A stretch of DNA of 38,086 nt from a virus (Duplodnaviria; Heunggongvirae; Uroviricota; Caudoviricetes). The notes under the pieces were generated by a model that was not told the DNA's origin, ran no database searches, and was given only the letters and a program-made list of their open reading frames with translations. Shown piece after piece: positions 936-36,960 of the stretch (positions within the stretch are counted from its first letter, which is position 1; the number at the start of each line of letters is the position of its first letter). The DNA lies in IMG/VR virus record IMGVR_UViG_2684622669_000016, positions 1-38,086 of that record, one strand, 5' to 3'. Made by a program: the position numbers and the translations under genes.

Positions 936-2621
936 GTGAATATAAACGTCGCCGAATTGTTAAATGGGAATTACATTCTGTTATTATTTGTGGTCCTCGC
1001 GCTTGGGCTGTGTCTCGGGAAATTACGACTTGGCTCAATCCAACTGGGTAATTCCATTGGCGTTTTGGTCGTATCGCTGTTATTAGGCCAACAACATTTC
1101 AGCATTAACACCGACGCACTGAATCTTGGTTTTATGCTGTTTATTTTCTGCGTCGGGGTCGAAGCCGGACCCAACTTTTTTTCCATTTTTTTTCGCGATG
1201 GGAAAAATTATCTAATGTTAGCCCTGGTAATGGTCGGCAGTGCGCTGCTGATCGCCTTAGGGCTGGGTAAGCTGTTTGGCTGGGACATCGGCCTGACAGC
1301 CGGGATGTTAGCTGGCTCCATGACTTCAACACCAGTTCTGGTTGGTGCCGGCGATACGTTACGCCATTCTGGTATGGAAAGCAGGCAGCTCTCTCTGGCA
1401 CTGGATAATCTTAGCCTCGGGTATGCGTTAACCTATTTAATTGGTCTGGTCAGTCTGATTGTCGGCGCGCGTTATTTACCGAAGTTGCAGCATCAGGACT
1501 TGCAGACCAGTGCTCAACAGATCGCCCGTGAACGAGGTCTGGACACCGACGCCAGCCGTAAAGTCTATTTACCAGTCATCCGCGCCTACCGTGTCGGCCC
1601 GGAGCTGGTTGCATGGACCGACGGCAAAAATCTACGAGAACTGGGCATCTATCGGCAAACGGGTTGCTATATCGAGCGTATCCGCCGTAATGGGATTCTG
1701 GCGAACCCGGATGGCGATGCCGTGCTGCAAATGGGTGATGAAATTGCGTTGGTCGGTTACCCTGACGCCCACGCCCGACTCGATCCCAGCTTCCGTAACG
1801 GTAAAGAAGTTTTTGATCGTGACCTTCTCGATATGCGTATCGTCACTGAAGAGGTAGTAGTTAAAAACCATAACGCCGTTGGTAAACGTCTGGCGCAATT
1901 GAAATTGACCGATCACGGTTGCTTCCTTAACCGCGTCATCCGCAGCCAGATAGAGATGCCAATCGATGATAACGTGGTGCTTAATAAAGGTGACGTGTTG
2001 CAAGTCAGTGGTGATGCCCGTCGCGTGAAAACCATCGCCGATCGCATTGGCTTTATCTCAATTCACAGCCAGGTTACCGATTTGCTGGCATTCTGCGCAT
2101 TCTTTGTCATTGGTCTGATGATTGGGATGATCACTTTCCAGTTCAGTACATTTAGCTTTGGCATGGGTAATGCTGCCGGATTGTTATTTGCCGGTATTAT
2201 GCTGGGCTTTATGCGCGCCAACCATCCTACCTTCGGCTACATTCCGCAGGGTGCCTTAAGCATGGTGAAAGAGTTCGGTTTGATGGTGTTTATGGCAGGC
2301 GTTGGTTTAAGCGCCGGTAGCGGCATCAATAACGGCCTTGGTGCAATTGGCGGTCAAATGCTGATTGCCGGATTGATTGTCAGTCTGGTGCCAGTGGTTA
2401 TCTGCTTCCTGTTCGGTGCTTACGTACTGCGTATGAACCGCGCGCTGTTATTCGGCGCAATGATGGGAGCACGTACTTGCGCTCCGGCAATGGAGATTAT
2501 CAGCGATACTGCGCGCAGTAATATCCCGGCGCTGGGCTATGCAGGTACCTATGCAATAGCTAACGTGCTACTGACGCTGGCGGGGACAATCATTGTAATG
2601 GTGTGGCCAGGACTCGGATAA
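936..2621 (+). CDS. ybjL: putative transporter YbjL (duplicated membrane domains around cytoplasmic TrkA-C-like domains)
   Basis: 561-aa ORF, hydrophobic N- and C-terminal halves with a soluble central region; matches E. coli YbjL as recalled. Confidence 0.9.
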
Positions 2622-3165: not shown

Positions 3166-4266
3166 TCATTCCATTTCGAAATCATCAATCCTCACTTCAA
3201 GCTCCAGACTGGTCGTGAAACCATTATCCGGGCTGACAGTATGTGTCAGGGTGGTAATGGTCCATTCCGCATCATCTATCGGCTGTTTAAAGCCACTGAC
3301 TTTCACTGGCATTTCCGTGTAGAGATCTGCCCGACCTTCCGCCAGTTGTAGCGAGAATGTCGCAACACCGCGTTGCAGGCGTTCCCACTGCATTTTCGCC
3401 GCTCGTTCGGCGTTGCTCCGGTTGGCATAAGTGCGATTAAGTACCAGCACGTTTTCATCCGTACCCACCAGGTAATCGCCCTGCTTCGCTTCCGGCTCTT
3501 TCTTCTGCTTCTTAGTCCTGCGCTTACGCTTCACCGTGGTGCTTTCTTTCTTCTCGGGTTCGCGGGTATGCAACCAGCTGGCAATTACGCCCGTGTAGGC
3601 TCCGCGATCTGCCAGGGTAAAGCGGTGACTGTCGCCGTCCTTACGTGTGATAGTGATAACCGGTAGTGGTTTACCGCTGGCGCTTTTGCCCTGTCCCTGC
3701 CGAATGAATAACAGATTGCCATTTTTCACCGACGCAATAGCACCGTACTGGCGCGCCAGCCGCATCAAAAAACTGCCGTCACTTTCATTGGTCTGGTCTA
3801 TATGATCCACGGGTTTATTCGACAGGTCTTTACCCAGTGCCATCTTCAGTTTGTGCCGCGCGGCTATTTCCTTCACCACTTCCCCGACTGTGGTCTTGTG
3901 CCACGACTTTTCACGGCGGGTATTCAGCGTTTCACGAAAATCAGCACTTCGCGCCCGGATAGTCAGGCGATCCGGTGCGCCAGTGTGTTCAATCTCGTCC
4001 ACCGTGAATGCCCCTTTCGGGAAAAGCGGCTGCCCCTTCCAGCCCAGCGCCAGCGTAATGACCGCACCACGGCGCGGCAGCGCGATTTTTCCGTCGGCGT
4101 CGTCCAGTTCCAGATCAAGCTGGTCTGCTTCAAAGCCCCGGTTATCCGTCAACGTCAGCCCCATCAGGCGGTTGTCCAGCACAGTGGTGATATCCCTGCC
4201 CTCAATACTGATGCTGAATGCCGGAGTTTTGTTGCCTTTGTTAAGCAGTTCAGAGCTGAAATTCAC
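3166..4266 (-). CDS. D: tail protein D (late control gene D)
   Basis: 366 aa; N-terminus and overall pattern resemble P2 gpD; position at the end of the tail operon. Confidence 0.9.
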   Translation of the reverse strand: MNFSSELLNKGNKTPAFSISIEGRDITTVLDNRLMGLTLTDNRGFEADQLDLELDDADGKIALPRRGAVITLALGWKGQPLFPKGAFTVDEIEHTGAPDRLTIRARSADFRETLNTRREKSWHKTTVGEVVKEIAARHKLKMALGKDLSNKPVDHIDQTNESDGSFLMRLARQYGAIASVKNGNLLFIRQGQGKSASGKPLPVITITRKDGDSHRFTLADRGAYTGVIASWLHTREPEKKESTTVKRKRRTKKQKKEPEAKQGDYLVGTDENVLVLNRTYANRSNAERAAKMQWERLQRGVATFSLQLAEGRADLYTEMPVKVSGFKQPIDDAEWTITTLTHTVSPDNGFTTSLELEVRIDDFEME

Positions 4267-24480: not shown

Positions 24481-26154
24481 TTAAGATTTATGGCTAAAGA
24501 GTATACCTGTAACAGAACGTTGATAGGCATCAAGCTTCTCTTGCCTCTGCTTAAATTTAGATTTGATATCACTAATACTCGGAATACCTATTACTCCAAG
24601 GCCTGCACTTAACGCCGCTAAAGTAGTATTGCCAGTCAGCGCTCCAGCAATTGCTATAGCACCATTTGCGATACATGGTAGGACATCCAGTCCGTAAATT
24701 CTCAATTTCTCTTTTTGGGCTTTTGCAAGAATCCTTTGATGTTCAATAAAAGCCCGGTCTACATTATCAATTACTTTTTGCGTTGTCCTCGAAAAGCTCT
24801 CTGCCGAAGAATTGATTAAAGAGTCAACACCATTTGATAAGATGGATCTTACATCCTCCATCAATTTGTTACGTCTCAACTCAATTATTTTATTGACCGG
24901 TACATTTCCTAACCATGAAAAACCATCTTGCATACCAGCAGATAACGCATGAACCATATGCAAATTTTTTAGTTCAATATCATTGACATCAAAATTAAGA
25001 GATTCGTACTCAATAAGCCAAGTATAATAGAGCCAAGATGTGTCTGCATTTATATATGGAGTACTACCAAGTTCTTGTGCATTACATTTTGCTGAATAGG
25101 CTTGCGGCATTCTTCCAATGCAGGAAAGGAAAACCTCCATTCCAGCATGATCACCAACAACATTACGTGATATTCTTTTTTTATCAGATAGTAGTTTTTC
25201 TAATTGAGTTTTTGGATTTAGCCCCCATGCTGTATCAAAAATAAGTCTATCTGCTCTCTTAATATTTTTAAGAACAGCATCAATATCATTCATCGAATAA
25301 CTAAAATCTTGAAATTCATCGTAGCTTTCGAACCGTCGATCATAGAGATATTGCGCATGAGTCAGAGCATAAGGCTCACAAAAACTCATCAAATTTTTTT
25401 TGCTCTCAGTTTCAAAATCTCTTCTATCCGGCAAAATTAATACTATTGCTGGCTCTATATCTTCAAGCGCTACTTCTTTATATGTCATACATGTTAGGAC
25501 ATGCTTCAGAAGTATCCTTGTAAACTCAGCCTTATCTGACTTTTCATAGAGACGACCGACTCTTAATATAGGACATGGAAGTGAAATAGTATCAACATAC
25601 AACCCTGCAATAGAGACAGCATTCTCATCAAATGCAGGAAATAAGTCACCAGAAAAATTAGCTTTAAACTGAGAACCATCCTGCAAATGTATTACACCAA
25701 TATCGGATGTTACCTGCCAAAACTCTATTACCTGATTATATAACTCAGGAAAAATATCTTCTATTTGCTTAACATATTCTTCTTGTTGAGAAAAAAAACT
25801 TGATGCTTTATGTGGCGTTGCATTAGTTTTTTTCATCAGATAAAACAACTCGCCAAAATTACTAAAAAGAATATTAAAGTAAGAACTTTGCAAGTCCTGA
25901 ATAGAGTATTTGTTTTTTATATCTTCTCTTTCTAAAAAGTGATTAACCGCTGCTCCCATAGCCCTTATTCTGCCATCAACAGTAGAAGGGTCAACTTTAC
26001 CATCCTGTCGCAGCCTTATTCTTTTAAAACTTTCAATAAAACCTTCTACAAGATGATGAGCTATTTTTAGTTTTCCCGCTTCCAGTTGTTGCTTAATGAG
26101 AAAAACACGCTCAGTTAAATCGTCTACATATTCCTCATCTTGATATTTTTCCAT
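24481..26154 (-). CDS. 557-aa protein of unknown function, AT-rich cargo gene (candidate anti-phage / exclusion gene)
   Basis: Long uninterrupted ORF, visibly AT-rich against the GC-rich structural genes; no recognisable motif by eye; C-terminal Gly/Ala-rich hydrophobic stretch. Confidence 0.8.
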   Translation of the reverse strand: MEKYQDEEYVDDLTERVFLIKQQLEAGKLKIAHHLVEGFIESFKRIRLRQDGKVDPSTVDGRIRAMGAAVNHFLEREDIKNKYSIQDLQSSYFNILFSNFGELFYLMKKTNATPHKASSFFSQQEEYVKQIEDIFPELYNQVIEFWQVTSDIGVIHLQDGSQFKANFSGDLFPAFDENAVSIAGLYVDTISLPCPILRVGRLYEKSDKAEFTRILLKHVLTCMTYKEVALEDIEPAIVLILPDRRDFETESKKNLMSFCEPYALTHAQYLYDRRFESYDEFQDFSYSMNDIDAVLKNIKRADRLIFDTAWGLNPKTQLEKLLSDKKRISRNVVGDHAGMEVFLSCIGRMPQAYSAKCNAQELGSTPYINADTSWLYYTWLIEYESLNFDVNDIELKNLHMVHALSAGMQDGFSWLGNVPVNKIIELRRNKLMEDVRSILSNGVDSLINSSAESFSRTTQKVIDNVDRAFIEHQRILAKAQKEKLRIYGLDVLPCIANGAIAIAGALTGNTTLAALSAGLGVIGIPSISDIKSKFKQRQEKLDAYQRSVTGILFSHKS

Positions 26155-26255
26155 AAACGCTCCATTAAAATATTTAATAATGCATATAAGAATAGTTAAT
26201 AATATTTACAGTAACTATATCACATTAGATCCAGATTGTTACACTGTTGCGCGCG

Positions 26256-26274
26256 CTCGTATCCCCGCCACGCC
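26256..26274 (-). other. candidate cos cohesive-end site
   Basis: Minus strand reads GGCGTGGCGGGGATACGAG, about 15/19 identical to the 186 cohesive end as recalled (GGCGTGGCGGGGAAAGCAT). Confidence 0.5.
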
Positions 26275-26544
26275 TGCCCGCTTTATGTAGTGGTTTTCAT
26301 GCACCTGCATGCTCTACGCAAAAGCCCGCCAGTTCTGGTGGGCCTTAGCAATAACGATCCTCAAACGATCATGCAATCTCATGCAGTATAGGCATGCACA
26401 ACAACTTACCTTAAGAAAAAACATCTGATATGCCCAACTGTTTCGTCTCTTTTCCAGTAGCTTGCTATGGCTTATCTTTAATGCAACTGTAATCGTGTAT
26501 GAAGATACAATCCCTACCAATCATAAAAATGAGGAACACAAAGA

Positions 26545-27285
26545 ATGACTGTGCACAAGCTCTCTGGTGCGTTTTTCCACGATATGCAGGTTGAGTGGCC
26601 CTGCCCTAACTGCAATCAGAAAACCCTACAGATCATTAAAGAAAGTTTCGTCTCGTATGACACACATGATACCCGAAAATTCCGCAGTGAAGATTGGTTT
26701 GAACCAGAAATGGATTCATCTATTTTCAGTTGCATGGCCCGCTGTTCAAGAATGCAATGTGGTGAAGTTGTGGCCTGTACTGGTAAGAGTGGATGGGAAC
26801 AAGGTTGGGATGAAGAAAGAAATGATATTGAGTACTATCAATGGCACAGACCTTTCACCTTTTACCCATCACTGCATCCTTTCGAAATACCTGAAAAATG
26901 CCCAGAAGAAATTACCGAACCGCTTGAAGCCTCATTTTCCATTTTCCTAATACAGCCTGGCGCAGCAGCAAACCTAATTCGAATTTCAGTTGAAAGAATG
27001 CTAACCGCTATGGATGTAGCTGAACGTAATGATAATGGCAAACGCATAACTCTACACCACCGTTTAGGGATGCTACCTGAATTATACGGATCGTTTTCAA
27101 GACCTCTTATGGCAATTAAATTTTTAGGAAATGCCGGAAGCCATACCTACGATGAAGTAAAAGTCAAAGACATTGAGGATGCTTTTGAGATTATGGAGTA
27201 CGTCGTCAATGACTTGTTCTCCGGTCGCAAAGAATCTGTCGAAGTATTGACGAAACGATTAAGTGAAAAATTCAAAGAAAACTGA
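26545..27285 (+). CDS. 246-aa protein: N-terminal Cys-rich zinc-ribbon-like region plus C-terminal DUF4145/HEPN-like domain (candidate abortive-infection effector)
   Basis: Strong SD (tgagga) before the ATG; CPNC…C…CSRMQC cysteine cluster; C-terminal …RITLHHRLG…IKFLGNAGSHTYDE… resembles the DUF4145 signature as recalled; AT-rich. Confidence 0.8.
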   Translation: MTVHKLSGAFFHDMQVEWPCPNCNQKTLQIIKESFVSYDTHDTRKFRSEDWFEPEMDSSIFSCMARCSRMQCGEVVACTGKSGWEQGWDEERNDIEYYQWHRPFTFYPSLHPFEIPEKCPEEITEPLEASFSIFLIQPGAAANLIRISVERMLTAMDVAERNDNGKRITLHHRLGMLPELYGSFSRPLMAIKFLGNAGSHTYDEVKVKDIEDAFEIMEYVVNDLFSGRKESVEVLTKRLSEKFKEN

Positions 27286-30440: not shown

Positions 30441-31267
30441 TCCACGCCACGCGAAGGATCAAATCCTACCCAGCAGCGCGGCCCGGAAACAGCAATGATT
30501 TCTGTTGCAGATTTACTCTCACCAGCTGCCACGCCGATGCTGCGTTTTGCCTTGATGTAGTGGTGAGTAAAATTGCGATACAGCGAACGGATCAGGGATG
30601 TGTCACTGTTAGAAATAATGACCGGATATCCTTCTGATGACCGATGTTCAAGAACGGATGCCAGGTGATACTGGTCATCTTCAGTGAAACCATCAGTGTG
30701 ATAGCCGGAAAACGTACCGTCATAAGGCGGATCGCAATACACCACATCCCCCGCGTGCAACATCGCCAGCGTTTCATCGAAGCTGGCGCAGATAAACGTT
30801 GCCCGCTGGGCTTTTACTGCAAATGCACGAATTTCTTTTTCAGGAAAATACGGATTTTTATAATTACCGTAGGGAATGTTGAAATGCCCGCTCTTGTTAT
30901 AGCGACATAAACCACGGTAACCGTGACGATTGAGATACAGGAAATATATTGCTTTCATGAAATCAGTAATTTCAGTTGAGTAATTAAACTCCTGCCTTAT
31001 GTTGTAATAATCCATCTCCCTATTTGCGTTCTCAAATAAAACTCTGGCGCGAGATATAAACGATTCACAATCAGCAGCAACCTTTTTATAGAGGTTGATT
31101 AAATCAGGATTAATATCCGCGACAAGATAGCTGGGGTACTCCGTCTCCATCATCACTGCACAGGAACCCGCGAAAGGTTCAACCAGTCGCGGGCCAGCAG
31201 GAAGATGTTTTTTCAGTTCGGACATAATGGCGGTTTTATTTCCCGCCCATTTCAGGATGGTGCTCAT
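30410..31267 (-). CDS. DNA adenine methyltransferase (Dam-like N6-adenine MTase)
   Basis: Start at the ATG at 31267 ([11 protein letters not shown]…) after GGAGG; DPPY catalytic motif; Dam-family N-terminus. Confidence 0.9.
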
Positions 31268-31491
31268 ACAGCACCTCCGTTGTAATGTTTGCCTTTCAGC
31301 TCTGCGATTTCCTGGCAGGTAATGCAAAGCTGCACTCCCGGAATGGCGCGGCGTCGTGCTGGCGGAATTGGCGCTTCACATTCAATACAAAGCACGCGAG
31401 ACACGCCCGGTGTTTTGGCACGGGCAGCACGAATATGGCGCTGGAGTTCTTCTTCAACGCGCTGCTGTACGAGATCCATTGCATCAGCCAT
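31264..31491 (-). CDS. TraR/DksA-family C4 zinc-finger protein
   Basis: 75 aa; CIECEAPIPPARRRAIPGVQLCITCQ zinc finger. Confidence 0.75.
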   Translation of the reverse strand: MADAMDLVQQRVEEELQRHIRAARAKTPGVSRVLCIECEAPIPPARRRAIPGVQLCITCQEIAELKGKHYNGGAV

Positions 31492-31730
31492 CAGTGGATC
31501 TCCTGCGCTTCGTTCTGGATTGCTTCAGCGGTCACACGCAGCAGTTCTGCTGCTTCGACGTGGTTTAGCTGGCGAGATGTGATATGACACGCCAGGCTAT
31601 CAAGGCGAGCAGCCATTGCTTCAGCCCTTGCCCGGCGCTCTTCCAGACGAGCCTCTGTCAGTAAAATATTAAGCCCTGCGTCATCCGGTCCGGTTTTGGT
31701 CGTGAGGGTTTCAATATTACGCATAATCAA
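31491..31730 (-). CDS. hypothetical early-region protein
   Basis: 79-aa ORF in tight operon spacing with the flanking early genes. Confidence 0.55.
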   Translation of the reverse strand: MIMRNIETLTTKTGPDDAGLNILLTEARLEERRARAEAMAARLDSLACHITSRQLNHVEAAELLRVTAEAIQNEAQEIH

Positions 31731-31791
31731 TTCTCCTGAATTTAGATAAAGGGATGCCCGGCGGGTTTACGCCATTAATTTCATTAGTTGG

Positions 31792-32133
31792 TTAATTCGG
31801 CATGGTTAGCCGTCTGGGAAATAAGCTCACCACTGCACGAAAATGATTCATTGCTTTAATCAACTCCCGCTTTTCGTCAGTGGTCAGCTCATTAATGCTG
31901 ATGCTATGACGTTCAGCTGGAATTTTTGCCATAAAGAATATGGCAGCCAGTGCTCGTTTATTTTGTTCGTTATTGATATCCCGTGGATCACGCATATCTT
32001 TTATAAACCGCTCAAGCTCTGACTCAATATTCAAGCCAAATACTTTCGCCCTTAACTCCGCAATGTGATTAAGTCCATTCAGGCGTTCACCGGGGCTTAA
32101 TGGAACAGTCGCCGCAGCGCCATTAATTGCCAT
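31792..32133 (-). CDS. hypothetical early-region protein
   Basis: 113-aa ORF, same orientation as the replication operon. Confidence 0.55.
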   Translation of the reverse strand: MAINGAAATVPLSPGERLNGLNHIAELRAKVFGLNIESELERFIKDMRDPRDINNEQNKRALAAIFFMAKIPAERHSISINELTTDEKRELIKAMNHFRAVVSLFPRRLTMPN

Positions 32134-32155
32134 AATTCATATCCCCAAAACGCAA

Positions 32156-32380
32156 CTATCGTTCTTTGTTCTTACGGTAACGCTCAAGGGGAGATACATT
32201 TTTTCGTACCGTCTCTTTAACCTGCTCTCCCCGTAAAAACGTCCCATCCTTTAGCGTGAAAAAGTAACTGCCATCGCCCGACAACGACGGATAACAACAG
32301 AGCAAATCATCTTCAGGTACTGAATAACTCTCCCCTCTGTAACGAAACTGATAAACCACTTCACTTTCTGCCGCATACAT
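32156..32380 (-). CDS. hypothetical early-region protein
   Basis: 74-aa ORF; an overlapping alternative frame (32251-32493) cannot be excluded. Confidence 0.45.
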   Translation of the reverse strand: MYAAESEVVYQFRYRGESYSVPEDDLLCCYPSLSGDGSYFFTLKDGTFLRGEQVKETVRKNVSPLERYRKNKER

Positions 32381-32440
32381 TTGGACTTTCTCCGTTTCCT
32401 CGTGGTCAATTCAGACAGCAATTCATCTTGTGAATAACAT

Positions 32441-32530
32441 GGATGCCAGCGTTTACCATCCTCACCCATGATCCAGCCGTGACCGTAGTGCATTGCCGGG
32501 CTTTGTTTTACCAGCAACGATGCAAATGAT
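32441..32530. repeat. direct repeat, copy A (90-bp block; 60-bp core 32471-32530)
   Basis: 60-bp core 58/60 identical to 33274-33333; a conserved ggatgcca lies 30 bp upstream in both copies. Confidence 0.65.
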
Positions 32531-32620
32531 TGTGCCGGGAATTTTTCTACACGCCCGGCGCGTGCCTCAGTGGTAGACTATTTGTGCTAACAATCATCTA
32601 CCCCTCAAAGGAGAAAACTG

Positions 32621-32701
32621 ATGTCAGAAACAGACAACTTTCATGTACTCCCTCGCCCGGCTCCAGCACCTCAGCCTGAACCGGGGCAAGAGAAGAAATA
32701 G
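32621..32701 (+). CDS. 26-aa Pro-rich small ORF (MSETDNFHVLPRPAPAPQPEPGQEKK), possible leader or partner peptide
   Basis: Strong SD (aaaggag) 8 nt before the ATG; stop 9 nt before the next ATG. Confidence 0.35.
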   Translation: MSETDNFHVLPRPAPAPQPEPGQEKK

Positions 32702-32710
32702 GAATCCGGC

Positions 32711-33169
32711 ATGACTAAACAAAGCTCCGAATACTTCCAATTGCACTACTGTTATTACCTTGAACTAATGACAGCAACGTTCCATGGTCGAGCTGATAAA
32801 TTAATGACAGCAATCCAACTTATAAGCGGAACAGCTGTATTTGCTAATACAGGTCTGGAATGGTTGTTCGCTTTTCCTGTTGTTGTAATCGCAACAATCC
32901 AACTTGTATGGCAACCAGCTATTATTGCGGAACGAGCAAGCGTACAAAGCCGACAATATGGTGAGTTGCTTTACGCCGAGGATGAATTGTCTCCACAGTT
33001 CATTGCACAAAAATTGAAAGCTTTGCATCACTCTGACTCCACAACATTCGGATCTTTGTTAAACCCAGCCTACAAAAGAGCTGCTATTGCCTGTGGTCGG
33101 GTTGACGATGTAAACCTCAGCTTCCAAGAAAAACTTTTCGCTTGGTTCGCAGGTTGTTTGCCGCGTTAA
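32711..33169 (+). CDS. 152-aa predicted membrane protein, opposite-strand cargo gene inside the early operon
   Basis: Two adjacent hydrophobic helices (…LISGTAVFANTGLEWLFAFPVVVIATIQLVWQPAIIA…); antiparallel to every neighbouring gene. Confidence 0.65.
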   Translation: MTKQSSEYFQLHYCYYLELMTATFHGRADKLMTAIQLISGTAVFANTGLEWLFAFPVVVIATIQLVWQPAIIAERASVQSRQYGELLYAEDELSPQFIAQKLKALHHSDSTTFGSLLNPAYKRAAIACGRVDDVNLSFQEKLFAWFAGCLPR

Positions 33170-33350
33170 CCATAAATCTTTGTAGGAATCGCTTTTTATT
33201 TCTTCCCCGGTAAGCCTGTTGCCGGGGTTGTAATTCAAAACTTGGATGCCACTTTTTCCCACAAGGTAAATAAATCCAGCCGTGACCGTAATGCATTGCC
33301 GGGCTTTGTTTTACCAGCAGCGATGCAAATGATGGTTCTTTCGTCAGCAT
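33117..33350 (-). CDS. hypothetical small protein just downstream of cII (77 aa from the ATG at 33350)
   Basis: GAGGTG SD after the cII stop; its 5' region coincides with repeat copy B. Confidence 0.4.
   Translation of the reverse strand: MLTKEPSFASLLVKQSPAMHYGHGWIYLPCGKKWHPSFELQPRQQAYRGRNKKRFLQRFMVNAANNLRTKRKVFLGS
33205..33227 (+). terminator. weak hairpin downstream of the 152-aa gene
   Basis: ccccgg / ccgggg stem around an 11-nt loop; poor T-tract. Confidence 0.25.
33244..33333. repeat. direct repeat, copy B (90-bp block; 60-bp core 33274-33333)
   Basis: Partner of 32441-32530. Confidence 0.65.
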
Positions 33351-33357
33351 AAGCACC

Positions 33358-33876
33358 TCACAGCAAACCAAATGAAGCACCGAGGCCAGTCACGGTATCA
33401 ACTGCACTCGCCATCGCAGGGTTAGCCTGTAAACGGGCCTGCAATGAAACAGCAGCCAACGCCATCAGTCGTGTTACAGAGTTAATGCTGCTGATAGCAT
33501 CACGACGGCCTGCACTGGTTTTTACATCGCCAGATACCGCGCCTGCAGCTACACGCCCGATCTCTGCTGTTGCACTCATGACGTAATGCGGCAGTTTCTC
33601 TTTTGCCACCTCATTAATCGGAACACATGGCAGGCAGTGAATCTGTGCCAGAAAACCATCTACCAGTGTTGAGTCTTCTGTCAGATCAGTAAGCAACCAA
33701 ATTTCTGGTGCGGTTAATAAATGAGGTTGAGCTGGATTCAGCTTGTTCCGCAGAATCTGCACATTCATACCTGCACGTTCTGCCAGTTGCACCAAGTTGT
33801 GGCGCAATGCAAATGCACGACAGGCTTCATCAAAATGTGGATGTTTGGAAACTTGGTAATCAAACATAGTCGACAC
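33358..33876 (-). CDS. cII: phage regulatory protein CII (186 CII-like)
   Basis: 172 aa; …[24 protein letters not shown]…[26 protein letters not shown]… matches the 186 CII family as recalled; follows the apl/cox-like gene. Confidence 0.7.
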
Positions 33877-33899
33877 TCCTGATGCATCCCAAAATGGAA

Positions 33900-34121
33900 C
33901 TAGTTGAATACAACATTGAAATCAGTAAGTGCATCAACGGTAAGAGCAGCAAGGTTGATCATTACCTTTTCTCTTTTCTTGTCTTTCCGAAGGCGATGGC
34001 GAGGGATACGACCATCAGCCAGCATATCGTTGATGGTGTCGATAGAAAGACCAGTAAGTTCGCTATAACGCTCAATTGTGACGTGTGGCGTATTCAGAGT
34101 TATTGAAATGTTAGGGGTCAT
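33900..34121 (-). CDS. Apl/Cox-like small DNA-binding protein (excisionase / lytic-switch regulator)
   Basis: 73 aa with an HTH-like segment; first gene of the operon divergent from cI. Confidence 0.6.
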
Positions 34122-34208
34122 GATGCAACATCTCCTATTGGCTTGTGGTGAGCCGGTATTAATCGTGACAAAACATCACAAAACGGAGAATAGGTTCACA
34201 TAAAGAAT

Positions 34209-35147
34209 ATGCCAACTCAAAAAATCACATTTCGCCATATTGAAGATAGTCTGAAAGCTATGGTCATGCAGAATCGTGGAGGGCAAAAAGTCATTGAGAG
34301 GATACTCAAGGCCTATGGTTTCAAATCACGCCAAGCCTTCTGTAAGCATCTTGGTATTTCACAAAGCACAATGGCTAATAGATATGCACGCGATACCTTC
34401 CCTGCTGATTGGGTTGTTATATGTTCAATGGAAACTGGCGCATCCCTAGAATGGCTGGCCTTTGGTTCTAACAATGCAGAAGAAAGTTCCCCCCCTTATG
34501 TGGAACAACATGATGAAACAGTCCCACATGAGGGGTTTAACAGCAACGCTCATCAATCATCCTTTAAGCGCCGCATTGAGAATCACATTGAGCTTACTAA
34601 CGGAGGAAAAGCCGCGATAGAGAGGATTGTTAATGCTTACGGGTTTAAAACCCGCCAAGCCTTAGCCGACCACCTTGGTATTTCAAAAAGCACATTAGCC
34701 ACACGATACATGCGAGATTCTTTCCCTGCGGATTGGGTGATTAAATGCGCATTAGAAACCAAAGCGGATCTCGCCTGGCTAGTTACAGGAATCGAAACAC
34801 CAAATAGTTCACAAGAAGAAAACACTGTAATTTTAAATAAGTTCAATTTGGTCAATGGCGTGCTTGTCGAGTCAGGTTTTTTATCCATGGATCGGTGTCT
34901 ACTTCCGAAGCAAGAAACTAGCAGCTTGATGTTTGTAAGCAATGGAGAAAAACATGTCATATGTGATAAAGAATTTCACCTAATTAGAGATGGAAAATGG
35001 TTAGTAGGAATTGACAATGAGTTATCTTTAAAAGAGTTAACTCGTTTACCTAAGAACAAAATTCTTGTTTCTGGTGGGAGTAAGGATTTTGAGTGTTCCA
35101 TTGAGGATATTCAAATTATAGCCAGCATTATCTTAACAATACAATAA
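34209..35147 (+). CDS. cI: CI-type immunity repressor with tandemly duplicated N-terminal DNA-binding domain
   Basis: 312 aa; two 186-CI-like units (…ERILKAYGFKSRQAFCKHLGISQSTMANRYARDTFPADWVVICSMETGASLEWL… and …ERIVNAYGFKTRQALADHLGISKSTLATRYMRDSFPADWVIKCALETKADLAWL…) followed by a C-terminal domain. Confidence 0.85.
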   Translation: MPTQKITFRHIEDSLKAMVMQNRGGQKVIERILKAYGFKSRQAFCKHLGISQSTMANRYARDTFPADWVVICSMETGASLEWLAFGSNNAEESSPPYVEQHDETVPHEGFNSNAHQSSFKRRIENHIELTNGGKAAIERIVNAYGFKTRQALADHLGISKSTLATRYMRDSFPADWVIKCALETKADLAWLVTGIETPNSSQEENTVILNKFNLVNGVLVESGFLSMDRCLLPKQETSSLMFVSNGEKHVICDKEFHLIRDGKWLVGIDNELSLKELTRLPKNKILVSGGSKDFECSIEDIQIIASIILTIQ

Positions 35148-35190
35148 CATTGCAGACATTACTTTTAAATACTTACTGGAGGAGTCTAAA

Positions 35191-36960
35191 ATGAATCATC
35201 ATCTTTCAAAGATTTCTATAAAAAACTTTAGATCTTGCAAAGATATTGATATCAATTTTTCTTCATTCACGCCTTTAATCGGTTACAACAATGCTGGTAA
35301 GTCAACGATTTTAAATGCTATTGAATGGCTTTTTAAGAAAAAACTTTTGTCCTCTGATGATTATACTAATCCAGATAACCCTATAGAAGTTATAGGTACA
35401 GTTAAGGGTATTACTGAAGATATTTTGTCAGCTTTAACAGAAGAAAACAGAACTAGAATTTCACCCTACATTATTGACGGGGTATTGATATTTAAGCGTC
35501 AACAGCCTGTTGGTGCTCAAAGTGCAAAAGACGTCAGATTATTAATTAAAAACCCAGAAAATAACGAATTCAGGACATCACCAACGGGTATTGAGAATGC
35601 GATAAAAGCTTTATTTCCAGACCCAATACGTATAGGTGCAATGGAAAATGCAGCGGATGATTCTTCAAAATCAAAAACAGGAACTACAATAGGTAAGTTG
35701 CTGGCAGAATTGAGTTGCAAAATAGAAGAGAAGCACACTCAAAGGATACTAAGCCATTTAAATGCCGTTAATAGAAGAATGACTGCAACCGGTAATAAAC
35801 GAATATCGGACCTCAATGATATTGATGATTCAATAAGTAGTAAAGTTGCTGATTTCTTCCCTGGGATAAGTTTAAAACTACACTTCGAACTCCCTGACTT
35901 CAAGGATATATTTAAATCAGGGACTGTAAAAGTATATGAAGATTCATTTCCCGGCATTGCTCGTGACTGTTCTTCTTATGGTCATGGCACACAGCGTTCG
36001 ATTCAGATGGCTCTAATAAGACATTTAGCTGATATAACCAACGGTGATGATATTAAAACAACTACTCTACTGTTAATAGATGAACCTGAGTTATATCTTC
36101 ACCCATTTGCTATCGAACAAATTAGAGAATCTCTAAAAACACTATCTCATCATGGATATCAAATAATTTTCTCTACCCATTCATCTCAAATGATTACCTC
36201 TGACTTAGCAAAAGACACTGTGTTAATCAGAAAAAACAGTCAGCGTGGCACTCATTGCAGATTAACATTAAAAGAAGCAGTCAATAAAGTAATCGAACAA
36301 CGACCAGCACAAGCAACCCATTTATTTTCATTAACACAGTCTTCAAAAGTTTTGTTTGCTAACAATGTAATACTAACAGAAGGTAAAACAGAGACTACTC
36401 TGCTCCCATTTATTTTTAACAAAGTTAAAAATAAAACATTAGGTCAGATGCAAATAGCACTAATTGAAACAGGGTCCGTTGAAAGTATATCTAAAACGAT
36501 GCAAATTCTAAATTCAATGGATATACCTACAAAAGCAATTGTTGATTTAGATTTTGCGTTCCGCGGTGCAATAAGGAACAACTTCTTAGAACATAATGAC
36601 GAGGATATTTTACGACTAAAAGAAATCTTGAGAAGTATGCATGCTAATGGAGAATGCACTCTCGATGGATCCGGTTTGCCTACAAAGGGTAGTAACACTA
36701 CCGCAGCTGAAGCATTTGCTATTATGTCTCAAAAGCCCGGCGCCAGAGAATTTTTGTCATCATTAGCCGCAAAACTGAGAAATGCAAATATTTGGATTTG
36801 GCTAAATGGTTCGATAGAAAACCATTTGGGTCTTACAGAAAAAAATGAATCAGTATGGGCTGATTTCAAAACAAAAGCAGATACACAACCTCTTTCAGAT
36901 ATCTGTGCAGATTTCGAAAGTATTGAGGCTTTAGTCGACTGGATTACCCCTGACGTATGA
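35191..36960 (+). CDS. old: OLD-family ATPase/Toprim nuclease (P2 Old homologue)
   Basis: 589 aa; Walker A GYNNAGKST; FRSCK, IDEPELYLHP and Toprim VILTEGKTE motifs; collinear with P2 Old as recalled; AT-rich; GGAGG SD. Confidence 0.85.
   Translation: MNHHLSKISIKNFRSCKDIDINFSSFTPLIGYNNAGKSTILNAIEWLFKKKLLSSDDYTNPDNPIEVIGTVKGITEDILSALTEENRTRISPYIIDGVLIFKRQQPVGAQSAKDVRLLIKNPENNEFRTSPTGIENAIKALFPDPIRIGAMENAADDSSKSKTGTTIGKLLAELSCKIEEKHTQRILSHLNAVNRRMTATGNKRISDLNDIDDSISSKVADFFPGISLKLHFELPDFKDIFKSGTVKVYEDSFPGIARDCSSYGHGTQRSIQMALIRHLADITNGDDIKTTTLLLIDEPELYLHPFAIEQIRESLKTLSHHGYQIIFSTHSSQMITSDLAKDTVLIRKNSQRGTHCRLTLKEAVNKVIEQRPAQATHLFSLTQSSKVLFANNVILTEGKTETTLLPFIFNKVKNKTLGQMQIALIETGSVESISKTMQILNSMDIPTKAIVDLDFAFRGAIRNNFLEHNDEDILRLKEILRSMHANGECTLDGSGLPTKGSNTTAAEAFAIMSQKPGAREFLSSLAAKLRNANIWIWLNGSIENHLGLTEKNESVWADFKTKADTQPLSDICADFESIEALVDWITPDV

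Follow-up and report, generated by a model that had tools for sequence, protein, structure and literature searches.

Background

The element described here is a small opposite-strand cassette, bracketed by direct repeats, in a 38,086-nucleotide stretch of Caudoviricetes DNA (IMG/VR record IMGVR_UViG_2684622669_000016; hereafter the window). Its closest described counterparts are the phage morons in the sense of Hendrix and Juhala, such as bor and lom of lambda, gp15 of HK97, and old, tin and fun(Z) of P2. Like these, the cassette is small, has a putative promoter and terminator of its own and lies between conserved genes; it is likewise patchy among close relatives and oriented for possible expression from a repressed prophage. 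Unlike the morons listed, it stands head-on inside an early lytic operon. P2-like phages carry defence cargo in variable slots, and two such hotspots have been described in P2 (PMC9122126); the slot of the cassette, between fil and a gene for a DUF5347 protein, is neither of the two.

The early operon of phage 186 has the order apl-cII-fil-dhr. The window shares the apl-cII-fil order with 186 and Fels-2, and both open reading frames (ORFs) that contain the repeats belong to the Fil family; it differs in that one fil has a foreign, near-neutral tail, the second is truncated at its 5' end, and there is no dhr homologue. Fil of phage 186 is a cell-division inhibitor. As at the mosaic junctions of temperate phages, modules appear to have been exchanged at gene boundaries, with one junction in the conserved fil core and one non-homologous; what sets the window apart is that the exchange seems to have been unequal, so that a partial tandem duplication still marks both parents.

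Known SLATT effectors act with a sensor partner, either a CD-NTase or a reverse transcriptase (RT). The cassette protein shares with SLATT effectors an N-terminal helix, a hairpin of two transmembrane helices and C-terminal helices. It differs in falling below the thresholds of SLATT models and in having no nucleotide-signalling or RT partner; a proline-rich upstream ORF (uORF) always precedes it instead. SLATT proteins have been predicted to act in defence as pore-forming effectors (PMC9226505), and the UG17/DRT10 RT has the SLATT-5 family as its partner (bioRxiv 10.64898/2026.04.29.721553). The uORF itself resembles leaders of the hok/mok type, or polyproline leaders dependent on elongation factor P, which are likewise short ORFs with a strong Shine-Dalgarno (SD) sequence, end within or beside the SD of a gene for a membrane protein, and contain PxP or PPP runs. 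The cassette protein is, unlike hok/mok-type toxins, three times larger than type I toxins, and neither a dedicated antisense RNA gene nor a conserved RNA structure was found at the cassette. Ribosome stalling on the uORF is conjecture.

The repeats and the two fil copies

An earlier note on this DNA had described a cassette bracketed by direct repeats, and the bracket is real. A repeat search of the window yields a direct repeat of 63 nt at 32471-32533 and 33274-33336, identical at 60 of 63 positions, with a spacing of 803 nt. At up to three mismatches the 63-mer occurs at these two sites only, and a second match arose in none of 100 shuffles. Weaker similarity continues for about 30 nt beside the core, including a 23-nt extension (32436-32458 and 33239-33261, 78% identity) that contains the shared GGATGCCA.

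Both repeat copies are coding sequence of fil. Copy A (33244-33336, high-identity core 33274-33336) represents codons 6-36 of filA, and copy B (32441-32533, core 32471-32533) the same codons of a resident long-type fil, filB. The gene filA (33117-33350, minus strand) is a complete Fels-2-type fil of 77 aa, aligned with the Fil proteins of 186 and Fels-2; it starts with the ATG at 33350, 8 nt past the cII stop, and has a ribosome-binding site (RBS). The remaining part of filB (32251-32533, minus strand) equals the 98-aa fil of cassette-free phages, as seen in alignment with Fil of vB_EcoM-813R9 and in its match to positions 11-98 of 98 of phrog_32377 (4e-60). Against the Pfam model Phage_186_Fil (PF10893, gathering cut-off 25 bits) the two copies score 83.6 and 67.1 bits, respectively, and PHROG cell-division-inhibitor families match both (1e-25 and 4e-60). 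The peptide HYGHGWI...WHP, noticed earlier in both minus-strand ORFs, is indeed common to the two. The accompanying proposal that the repeats are paralogous gene starts holds as to the homology of the two ORFs and fails for the downstream copy, which is no gene start: in filB, codons 1-5 are missing along with the start codon and the RBS.

In the core the two copies reach 95% identity; they diverge sharply in codons 27-36 and in the tails. After codon 26 one reads YLPCGKKWHP and the other MGEDGKRWHP, and no relationship remains beyond codon 36. In their inner 30 nt, copies A and B carry different fil alleles. In filA, codons 1-36 have a ratio of non-synonymous to synonymous substitution rates (dN/dS) of 0.02-0.16 and codons 37-60 one of 0.5-0.9, and all changes in codons 61-77 are non-synonymous. 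Accordingly, filA combines a selected core of 36 codons with a nearly unconstrained tail, whose frame crosses the cassette terminator and the 3' end of the cassette's larger gene. The long fil frame shares 130 nt (32251-32380) with orf74 in another frame, and the ~43 C-terminal residues of the 98-aa Fil probably reflect read-through and not function.

Haplotypes of the slot

The slot between the fil core and the DUF5347 gene was seen in four states. In the short form, a 66-aa fil directly abuts DUF5347. In the long-fil form, found in vB_EcoM-813R9, Klebsiella phage 4LV2017 and most E. coli matches, a 98-aa fil overlaps orf74; this form is exactly 803 bp shorter than the window and carries a single copy of the 63-mer, matched by both copies of the window. 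The Fels-2 form has the order fil core, cassette, DUF5347, with a single fil and no repeat. Its carriers are Fels-2, E. coli GPEC60-12-649, Citrobacter, Enterobacter and Klebsiella sp. R390 (the last with an orf74 homologue); two carriers are E. coli, and those outside E. coli are 77-83% identical to the window in nucleotide sequence. The tandem form, with a fil copy on each side of the cassette, occurs in the window, in Escherichia sp. E1V33 and in 38 of 5,426 complete E. coli genomes, including NC101, with cassettes at least 99.5% identical, a uniformity that fits a single event.

As is typical of morons, the cassette is present or absent at the same position among close relatives: it occupies the slot in 40 of the 1,318 E. 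coli genomes that have this cII-fil region, most of which are cassette-free. The comparison with cassette-free relatives proposed in the earlier note thus gives a difference of exactly 803 bp and one retained repeat copy, and not a fixed arrangement of conserved core genes. The slot between fil and DUF5347 is a third variable slot of P2/186-like prophages, besides the two known defence hotspots. In Klebsiella sp. R390 (3274-3737) an orf74 homologue and another antiparallel ORF of 82 aa stand beside the cassette, so that the slot has room for more than one small unit on the opposite strand.

Two further comparisons deserve mention. GF130 (tandem) and GF4-3 (cassette-free) share a chromosomal site and were considered as a case of recent gain or loss, which was rejected, the prophages being only 95-96% identical. 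A 1.5-kb contig binned in a metagenome-assembled genome of Parachlamydiaceae (JBKEAL010000276.1) consists of Fels-2-like DNA from an enterobacterial phage, with 83% identity to the window, and is almost certainly mis-binned or a contaminant.

Origin of the bracket

Three-way comparison of the window with cassette-free and Fels-2-type phages places a recombination junction at 32531-32533, where fil-derived sequence ending in GCAAATGA meets Fels-2-type sequence (TTGTGCCGGG). The window reads GCAAATGA-TTGT-GCCGGG at this point, against GCAAATGA-TGGT-TCTTTC in intact fil and TTTGAAG-TTGT-GCCGGG in the Fels-2 form. The shared bases are a patchy microhomology of a few positions at most, and the left join is therefore one of illegitimate recombination. 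The junction is identical in NC101, E1V33 and GF130. Similarity to each cassette-bearing locus starts at one and the same point, 32529-32535, at the inverted repeat GCCGGG-N14-CCCGGC, and filA and the larger cassette gene of the window are 98-100% identical to those of an E. coli phage of the Fels-2 form.

The bracket is very probably the scar of one illegitimate join between two phage variants in a narrow Escherichia lineage, and no part of the cassette. The simplest history is a single unequal exchange, in which a genome of the Fels-2 form would have been broken just past the cassette and joined to codon 6 of a long-fil genome, ordinary homology at the other end coming from cII and the conserved core of fil; the outcome would be fil codons 6-36 on each side of the cassette. 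Recombination within the 63-nt core should be able to delete the 803 bp again and restore an intact long fil scar-free. From the distribution and the allele pattern we infer that the tandem form is derived and not ancestral, and the identities suggest that tandem-form cassettes are nested within the diversity of the Fels-2 form. The Fels-2 form, in turn, looks like a replacement of the 3' part of fil by the cassette, given the near-neutral evolution of the filA tail. Viewed in this way, the bracket is ordinary phage mosaicism, yet as a fossil it records an unequal exchange between two lineages of phage with unusual clarity.

The earlier suggestion that the repeats served to capture the cassette by recombination was half right. 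Presence and absence are exactly bounded by the repeats; the repeats themselves appear to be a by-product of one recombination. As a capture device they are not borne out, since the widespread cassette form has one fil and no repeat, the inner 30 nt are allelic and the left junction is illegitimate.

The order of events could also be reversed, with fil duplicated in tandem in situ, the cassette inserted between the copies, and the tandem form ancestral to the other two. Deletion between the repeats would then yield the cassette-free form, and deletion of the truncated fil together with orf74 the Fels-2 form. The tandem form, however, is restricted to near-identical Escherichia prophages (the 38 genomes mentioned above), whereas the Fels-2 form spans several genera at 77-83% identity, and a duplication in place does not sit well with copies that agree in the core and differ sharply beyond codon 26. 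Unlikely already on the allele pattern and the narrow distribution, this order of events is one to which we attach very little probability.

An autonomous mobile element inserted in fil, with a 93-bp target duplication or with the repeats as its recombination sites, is scarcely credible: direct repeats do flank the unit and cassette-free relatives do retain one copy, but 32441-33336 contains no recombinase, transposase or terminal inverted repeat in or beside the unit, such as would mark a transposon, insertion sequence or integron cassette, the supposed 93-nt duplication consists of allelic fil sequence (YLPCGKKWHP and MGEDGKRWHP), the left junction is non-homologous, and the commoner cassette form lacks the second copy, so that a transposon-like insertion was excluded.

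Anatomy of the cassette

The cassette spans 32534-33243 (about 710 bp) and contains two ORFs on the plus strand, found where the earlier note had placed them and antiparallel to the early operon. The first, at 32621-32701, is the proline-rich uORF of 26 codons (MSETDNFHVLPRPAPAPQPEPGQEKK), which AAGGAG precedes by 7 nt; its stop falls within the SD of the main gene (TAGGA), 9 nt short of the ATG of that gene. The second, at 32711-33169, encodes the 152-aa protein with two transmembrane helices and matches phrog_6315 over its full length (4e-76). When five other enterobacterial loci are compared, the 152-aa frame has a dN/dS of 0.04 (0.03-0.06) and the remaining five frames have 0.12-0.19 or at least 0.77; the uORF has 0.05-0.10, with values above 1.5 in its other frames. 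It follows that both ORFs are translated and under constraint.

The same comparison bears on the Fels-2 reference sequence (NC_010463.1), in which the gene that is conserved and under selection lies on the plus strand, as the 152-aa ORF at 1682-2140 with its 26-codon uORF at 1592-1672. The annotated coding sequence STM2733.1 (1595-1999, minus strand) is, on this evidence, a mis-annotation on the wrong strand, and the reference annotation is to be corrected in this respect.

The inverted repeat GCCGGG-N14-CCCGGC (32534-32559) forms the left module boundary in every genome. It folds at -15.5 kcal/mol (z -2.3), shows a two-sided change to ACCGGG...CCCGGT in Yersinia, and is unique in the window. 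A putative promoter and leader follow on the plus strand at 32571-32613, with an extended -10-like element, TGGTAGACT (32571-32579), and the SD AAGGAG (32608-32613); in a reading of the multi-locus comparison, TGGTAGACT is conserved as TGGTATATT in Yersinia, and we regard it as a candidate promoter of the cassette. The centre of the inverted repeat lies some 40 nt before the putative transcription start. Control of the cassette by CII was considered and rejected: the 186-type CII site, with half-sites ATGTTTG-N13-CAAACAT that match the annotated site of 186, overlaps the cII start, and the inverted repeat is unrelated to it. A relationship of the boundary hairpin to 186 tR1 was also rejected, the two being unrelated.

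A terminator-like hairpin, CCCCGGTAAGCCTGTTGCCGGGG, lies on the plus strand at 33205-33227, 36 nt past the stop of the 152-aa gene. As plus-strand RNA it folds at -16.8 kcal/mol (z -2.8), against -11.2 on the minus strand, and the hairpin is kept in Fels-2. An Rfam scan of 31000-35500 gave only a chance match to a CRISPR direct repeat.

The membrane protein and its family

That the 152-aa product is a two-helix membrane protein, as proposed before, agrees with the hydropathy profile, which has two hydrophobic segments at residues ~31-47 and 50-72, likewise across the family, and with the AlphaFold (AF2) model, a long helical hairpin. Built on a 100-sequence alignment, the model reaches a mean local confidence (pLDDT) of 92.5 and a global score (pTM) of 0.85, and supersedes a run with 11 close sequences (pLDDT 67). 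A long N-terminal helix leads into the first transmembrane helix; after a tight turn, the second extends as a long helix and is followed by three short helices. Two transmembrane helices flanked by further helices is the architecture of SLATT proteins. The gene contains an in-frame internal repeat (32802-32844 and 32886-32928; 72%, 84 nt apart), and the two transmembrane helices (TAIQLISGTAV and ATIQLVWQPAI) look like an ancient duplication of one helix.

Close homologues, 67-99% identical, all 152 aa long and all labelled 'hypothetical', come from Enterobacterales only. Among 1.84 billion representatives, a profile search found 170 clusters at E <=1e-3, nearly all of 150-180 aa, to which the same search at E <=10 added nothing. 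The uncharacterised family phrog_6315 takes in all 100 aligned members. The literature searched on this module, STM2734, WP_000166365, SLATT proteins with a uORF, or morons at 186 fil yielded nothing relevant.

Several weak signals converge on SLATT. In a Foldseek search against predicted viral structures (BFVD), SLATT-named proteins were 9 of the top 19 matches, at probabilities of 0.30-0.98. The PADLOC models for the CBASS 2TM effector and the RT-associated SLATT protein (RTasSLATT) match about 15 family members weakly (best 2.7e-4), sub-threshold Pfam matches occur in three of 10 distant members (SLATT_fungal 0.005, SLATT_1 0.048, DUF4231 0.06), and one member is labelled 'SLATT family 5' by its source. 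The window protein has no significant SLATT profile match, the matches being sub-threshold and in other family members, and no solved SLATT structure was among the results of the fold searches of the PDB. On balance the family is probably a distant branch of the SLATT clan, a membership that these signals suggest and do not demonstrate.

Homologues of 25-30% identity were found in lambdoid prophages of the Haemophilus, Pasteurella and Mannheimia type, in the early operon of a metagenomic P2-like phage and, in one phage, between the antiterminator gene Q and the holin gene. The unit is always a lone one, antiparallel to its neighbours, in temperate phages, and it often adjoins genes for a CI-type repressor and for GmrSD/HEPN, PD-(D/E)XK or RNase T proteins. 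Each of the ten lineages inspected has a uORF of 22-50 codons ahead of the main gene, with 1-10 nt between its end and the main ATG; the gene pair, not the single gene, is therefore the conserved unit. Nine of the ten peptides were aligned and share the core H-V-x-x-R-P-x-P-x-P-x-P (examples are MSETDNFHVLPRPAPAPQPEPGQEKK, MEIEKEEKSHVPTRPTPQPKPR and MERKRDGRGHVPPRPTPPPKPR), and PPP runs are found in the most distant uORFs; the 50-codon uORF of one locus (L025), which shares the PPP run only, was excluded from the peptide alignment. The cargo of the slot is in this sense a strictly conserved two-gene unit of temperate phages of Enterobacterales, Pasteurellaceae and gut metagenomes that carries no annotation.

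Possible functions

The earlier note had named the membrane protein a candidate for superinfection exclusion or lysogenic conversion. Such a reading is plausible, supported by the SLATT-like fold with two transmembrane helices, the moron-like placement and the defence-gene neighbours in distant relatives. The cassette would be a moron equipped with an extended -10-type promoter and a terminator of its own. With CI holding the convergent early promoter off in a lysogen, the cassette would be transcribed unopposed; during lytic growth, early transcription across the cassette would silence it. The strongly initiated uORF ends in the SD of the main gene, and translation through it might set the output of the 152-aa protein, either through coupling or because ribosomes occupy the overlapping SD. 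The product would form a two-helix hairpin in the inner membrane, with both ends cytoplasmic, and might perturb the membrane as SLATT-type effectors do, so that superinfecting phages are excluded or aborted. Expression in the lysogen, control by the uORF and an exclusion or abortive role are thus what we infer. Taken as a whole, with the structural account, the explanation has in our judgement slightly better than even chances; the defence function of the cassette, taken by itself, is possible and falls short of probable. If the protein were a true exclusion or abortive effector, the cassette would represent a SLATT-type system that stands alone and is controlled in a new way, and at 710 bp it is small, easily cloned and tested.

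A number of observations weigh against this explanation. A consensus scan found no canonical sigma-70 promoter at the cassette start, and the T-tail of the terminator-like hairpin is weak and missing in Fels-2. RNAalifold gave no supported structure for the region from the uORF to the main gene, with a positive covariation term, and the uORF may be a partner peptide and not a translational control element. No SMODS, SLOG, RT or other sensor partner stands beside the gene in the 10 lineages inspected, the uORF being the only companion. Pfam, NCBIfam and PADLOC models have no match to the window protein, PDB sequences have none either, and PDB fold searches return generic helical hairpins only, while the Foldseek matches in BFVD have E values of only 0.02-1 and TM-scores of 0.35-0.60. 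On the structural side, the direction of change, with the tandem form derived, is read from distribution and allele pattern. At the level of known defence genes, PADLOC at E <=1 matches neither ORF of the cassette, and PADLOC, Pfam and NCBIfam indicate no homology to a known exclusion or abortive-infection (Abi) protein.

The tight, universally conserved pairing of two genes, with a strong SD on the small one, is also what would be seen in an addiction or toxin-antitoxin-like pair, in which a membrane toxin with two transmembrane helices is restrained by the proline-rich peptide or by the antisense early transcript and stabilises the prophage, in place of a defence against other phages. The product is a membrane hairpin protein, and SLATT proteins can be toxic (PMC9226505). 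Pfam, PADLOC and NCBIfam, however, show no similarity to known toxin-antitoxin families, a length of 152 aa far exceeds that of type I toxins, and the uORF peptide has no fold or known binding motif. We consider such a pair unlikely.

The position of the unit, head-on in the early operon directly after fil and overlapping the fil 3' end, might instead serve the phage's own life cycle: convergent transcription or antisense RNA would damp fil and the replication genes, or the protein would modulate division or lysis together with Fil. Regulation in phage 186 does use convergent promoters (186 annotation). The distant homologues, however, lie in quite different slots (the lambdoid immunity region, the Q-holin region), where the antiparallel, stand-alone placement is all that stays constant, and most related phages manage without the cassette. 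A role of this kind seems distinctly unlikely.

A bolder extension of the exclusion reading would make the proline-rich uORF and the SLATT-like gene a widespread, previously undescribed, self-contained prophage defence module in which translation of the leader acts as the sensor. During infection, ribosomes would move along the leader or terminate on it in an altered way, which would allow a membrane-permeabilising effector to be translated, and the leader would replace the nucleotide-signalling or RT partner of other SLATT effectors. At present we hold this to be improbable.

Lysogenic conversion unrelated to phage conflict, such as envelope stress, antimicrobial tolerance or host colonisation, might be invoked for a membrane protein in prophages of gut and pathogenic Enterobacterales and Pasteurellaceae; nothing specific favours it, phage-defence genes are the neighbours at remote loci, and Old and other defence cargo are present in the window prophage itself, which leaves it very improbable.

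The surrounding prophage

The window covers most of a 186/Fels-2-like (Peduoviridae) prophage. The order on the minus strand is an apl/cox-like gene, cII (Phage_CP76), fil, and then the DUF5347 gene, a DUF2732 gene, a TraR/DksA zinc-finger gene, dam and the replication gene A (repA); the repeat-bracketed region begins immediately downstream of cII, and the cassette in it is antiparallel to all these early genes. The gene upstream of fil in this early lytic operon, cII (33358-33867, minus strand), encodes 169 aa from the ATG at 33867 (Pfam Phage_CP76, 3.4e-42). The right-hand anchor of the variable slot, the DUF5347 gene (31792-32133, minus strand; Pfam DUF5347, 3.7e-33), is found in all haplotypes. 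Between them, orf74 (32156-32380, minus strand; phrog_4312) has its own GGAG, overlaps the filB tail by 130 nt and is part of the resident long-fil module; its identification as a homologue of Dhr was rejected, there being no similarity to Dhr of 186.

The portal-to-repA hotspot (24481-27285) encodes a 557-aa protein with a weak PADLOC match to DitB and a DUF4145 / PD-T7-4-like protein, probably additional defence cargo; relatives have a PIN-domain protein or the retron Ec67 RT there instead. The genes for CI, an Old-family nuclease and the integrase (int) are on the plus strand in the right side of the window. The Old-family ATPase/TOPRIM nuclease is full-length and of the P2 type (35191-36960, plus strand; PADLOC Old, 1.4e-234) and lies between cI and int, a position different from that of old in P2. 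The CI repressor (34209-35147, plus strand) is 312 aa long, with two tandem helix-turn-helix domains of the Phage_CI_repr type (KAYGFKSRQAF... and NAYGFKTRQAL...) before the C-terminal domain; CI of related phages has 190-200 aa, and the long type is also present in Klebsiella phage 4LV2017.

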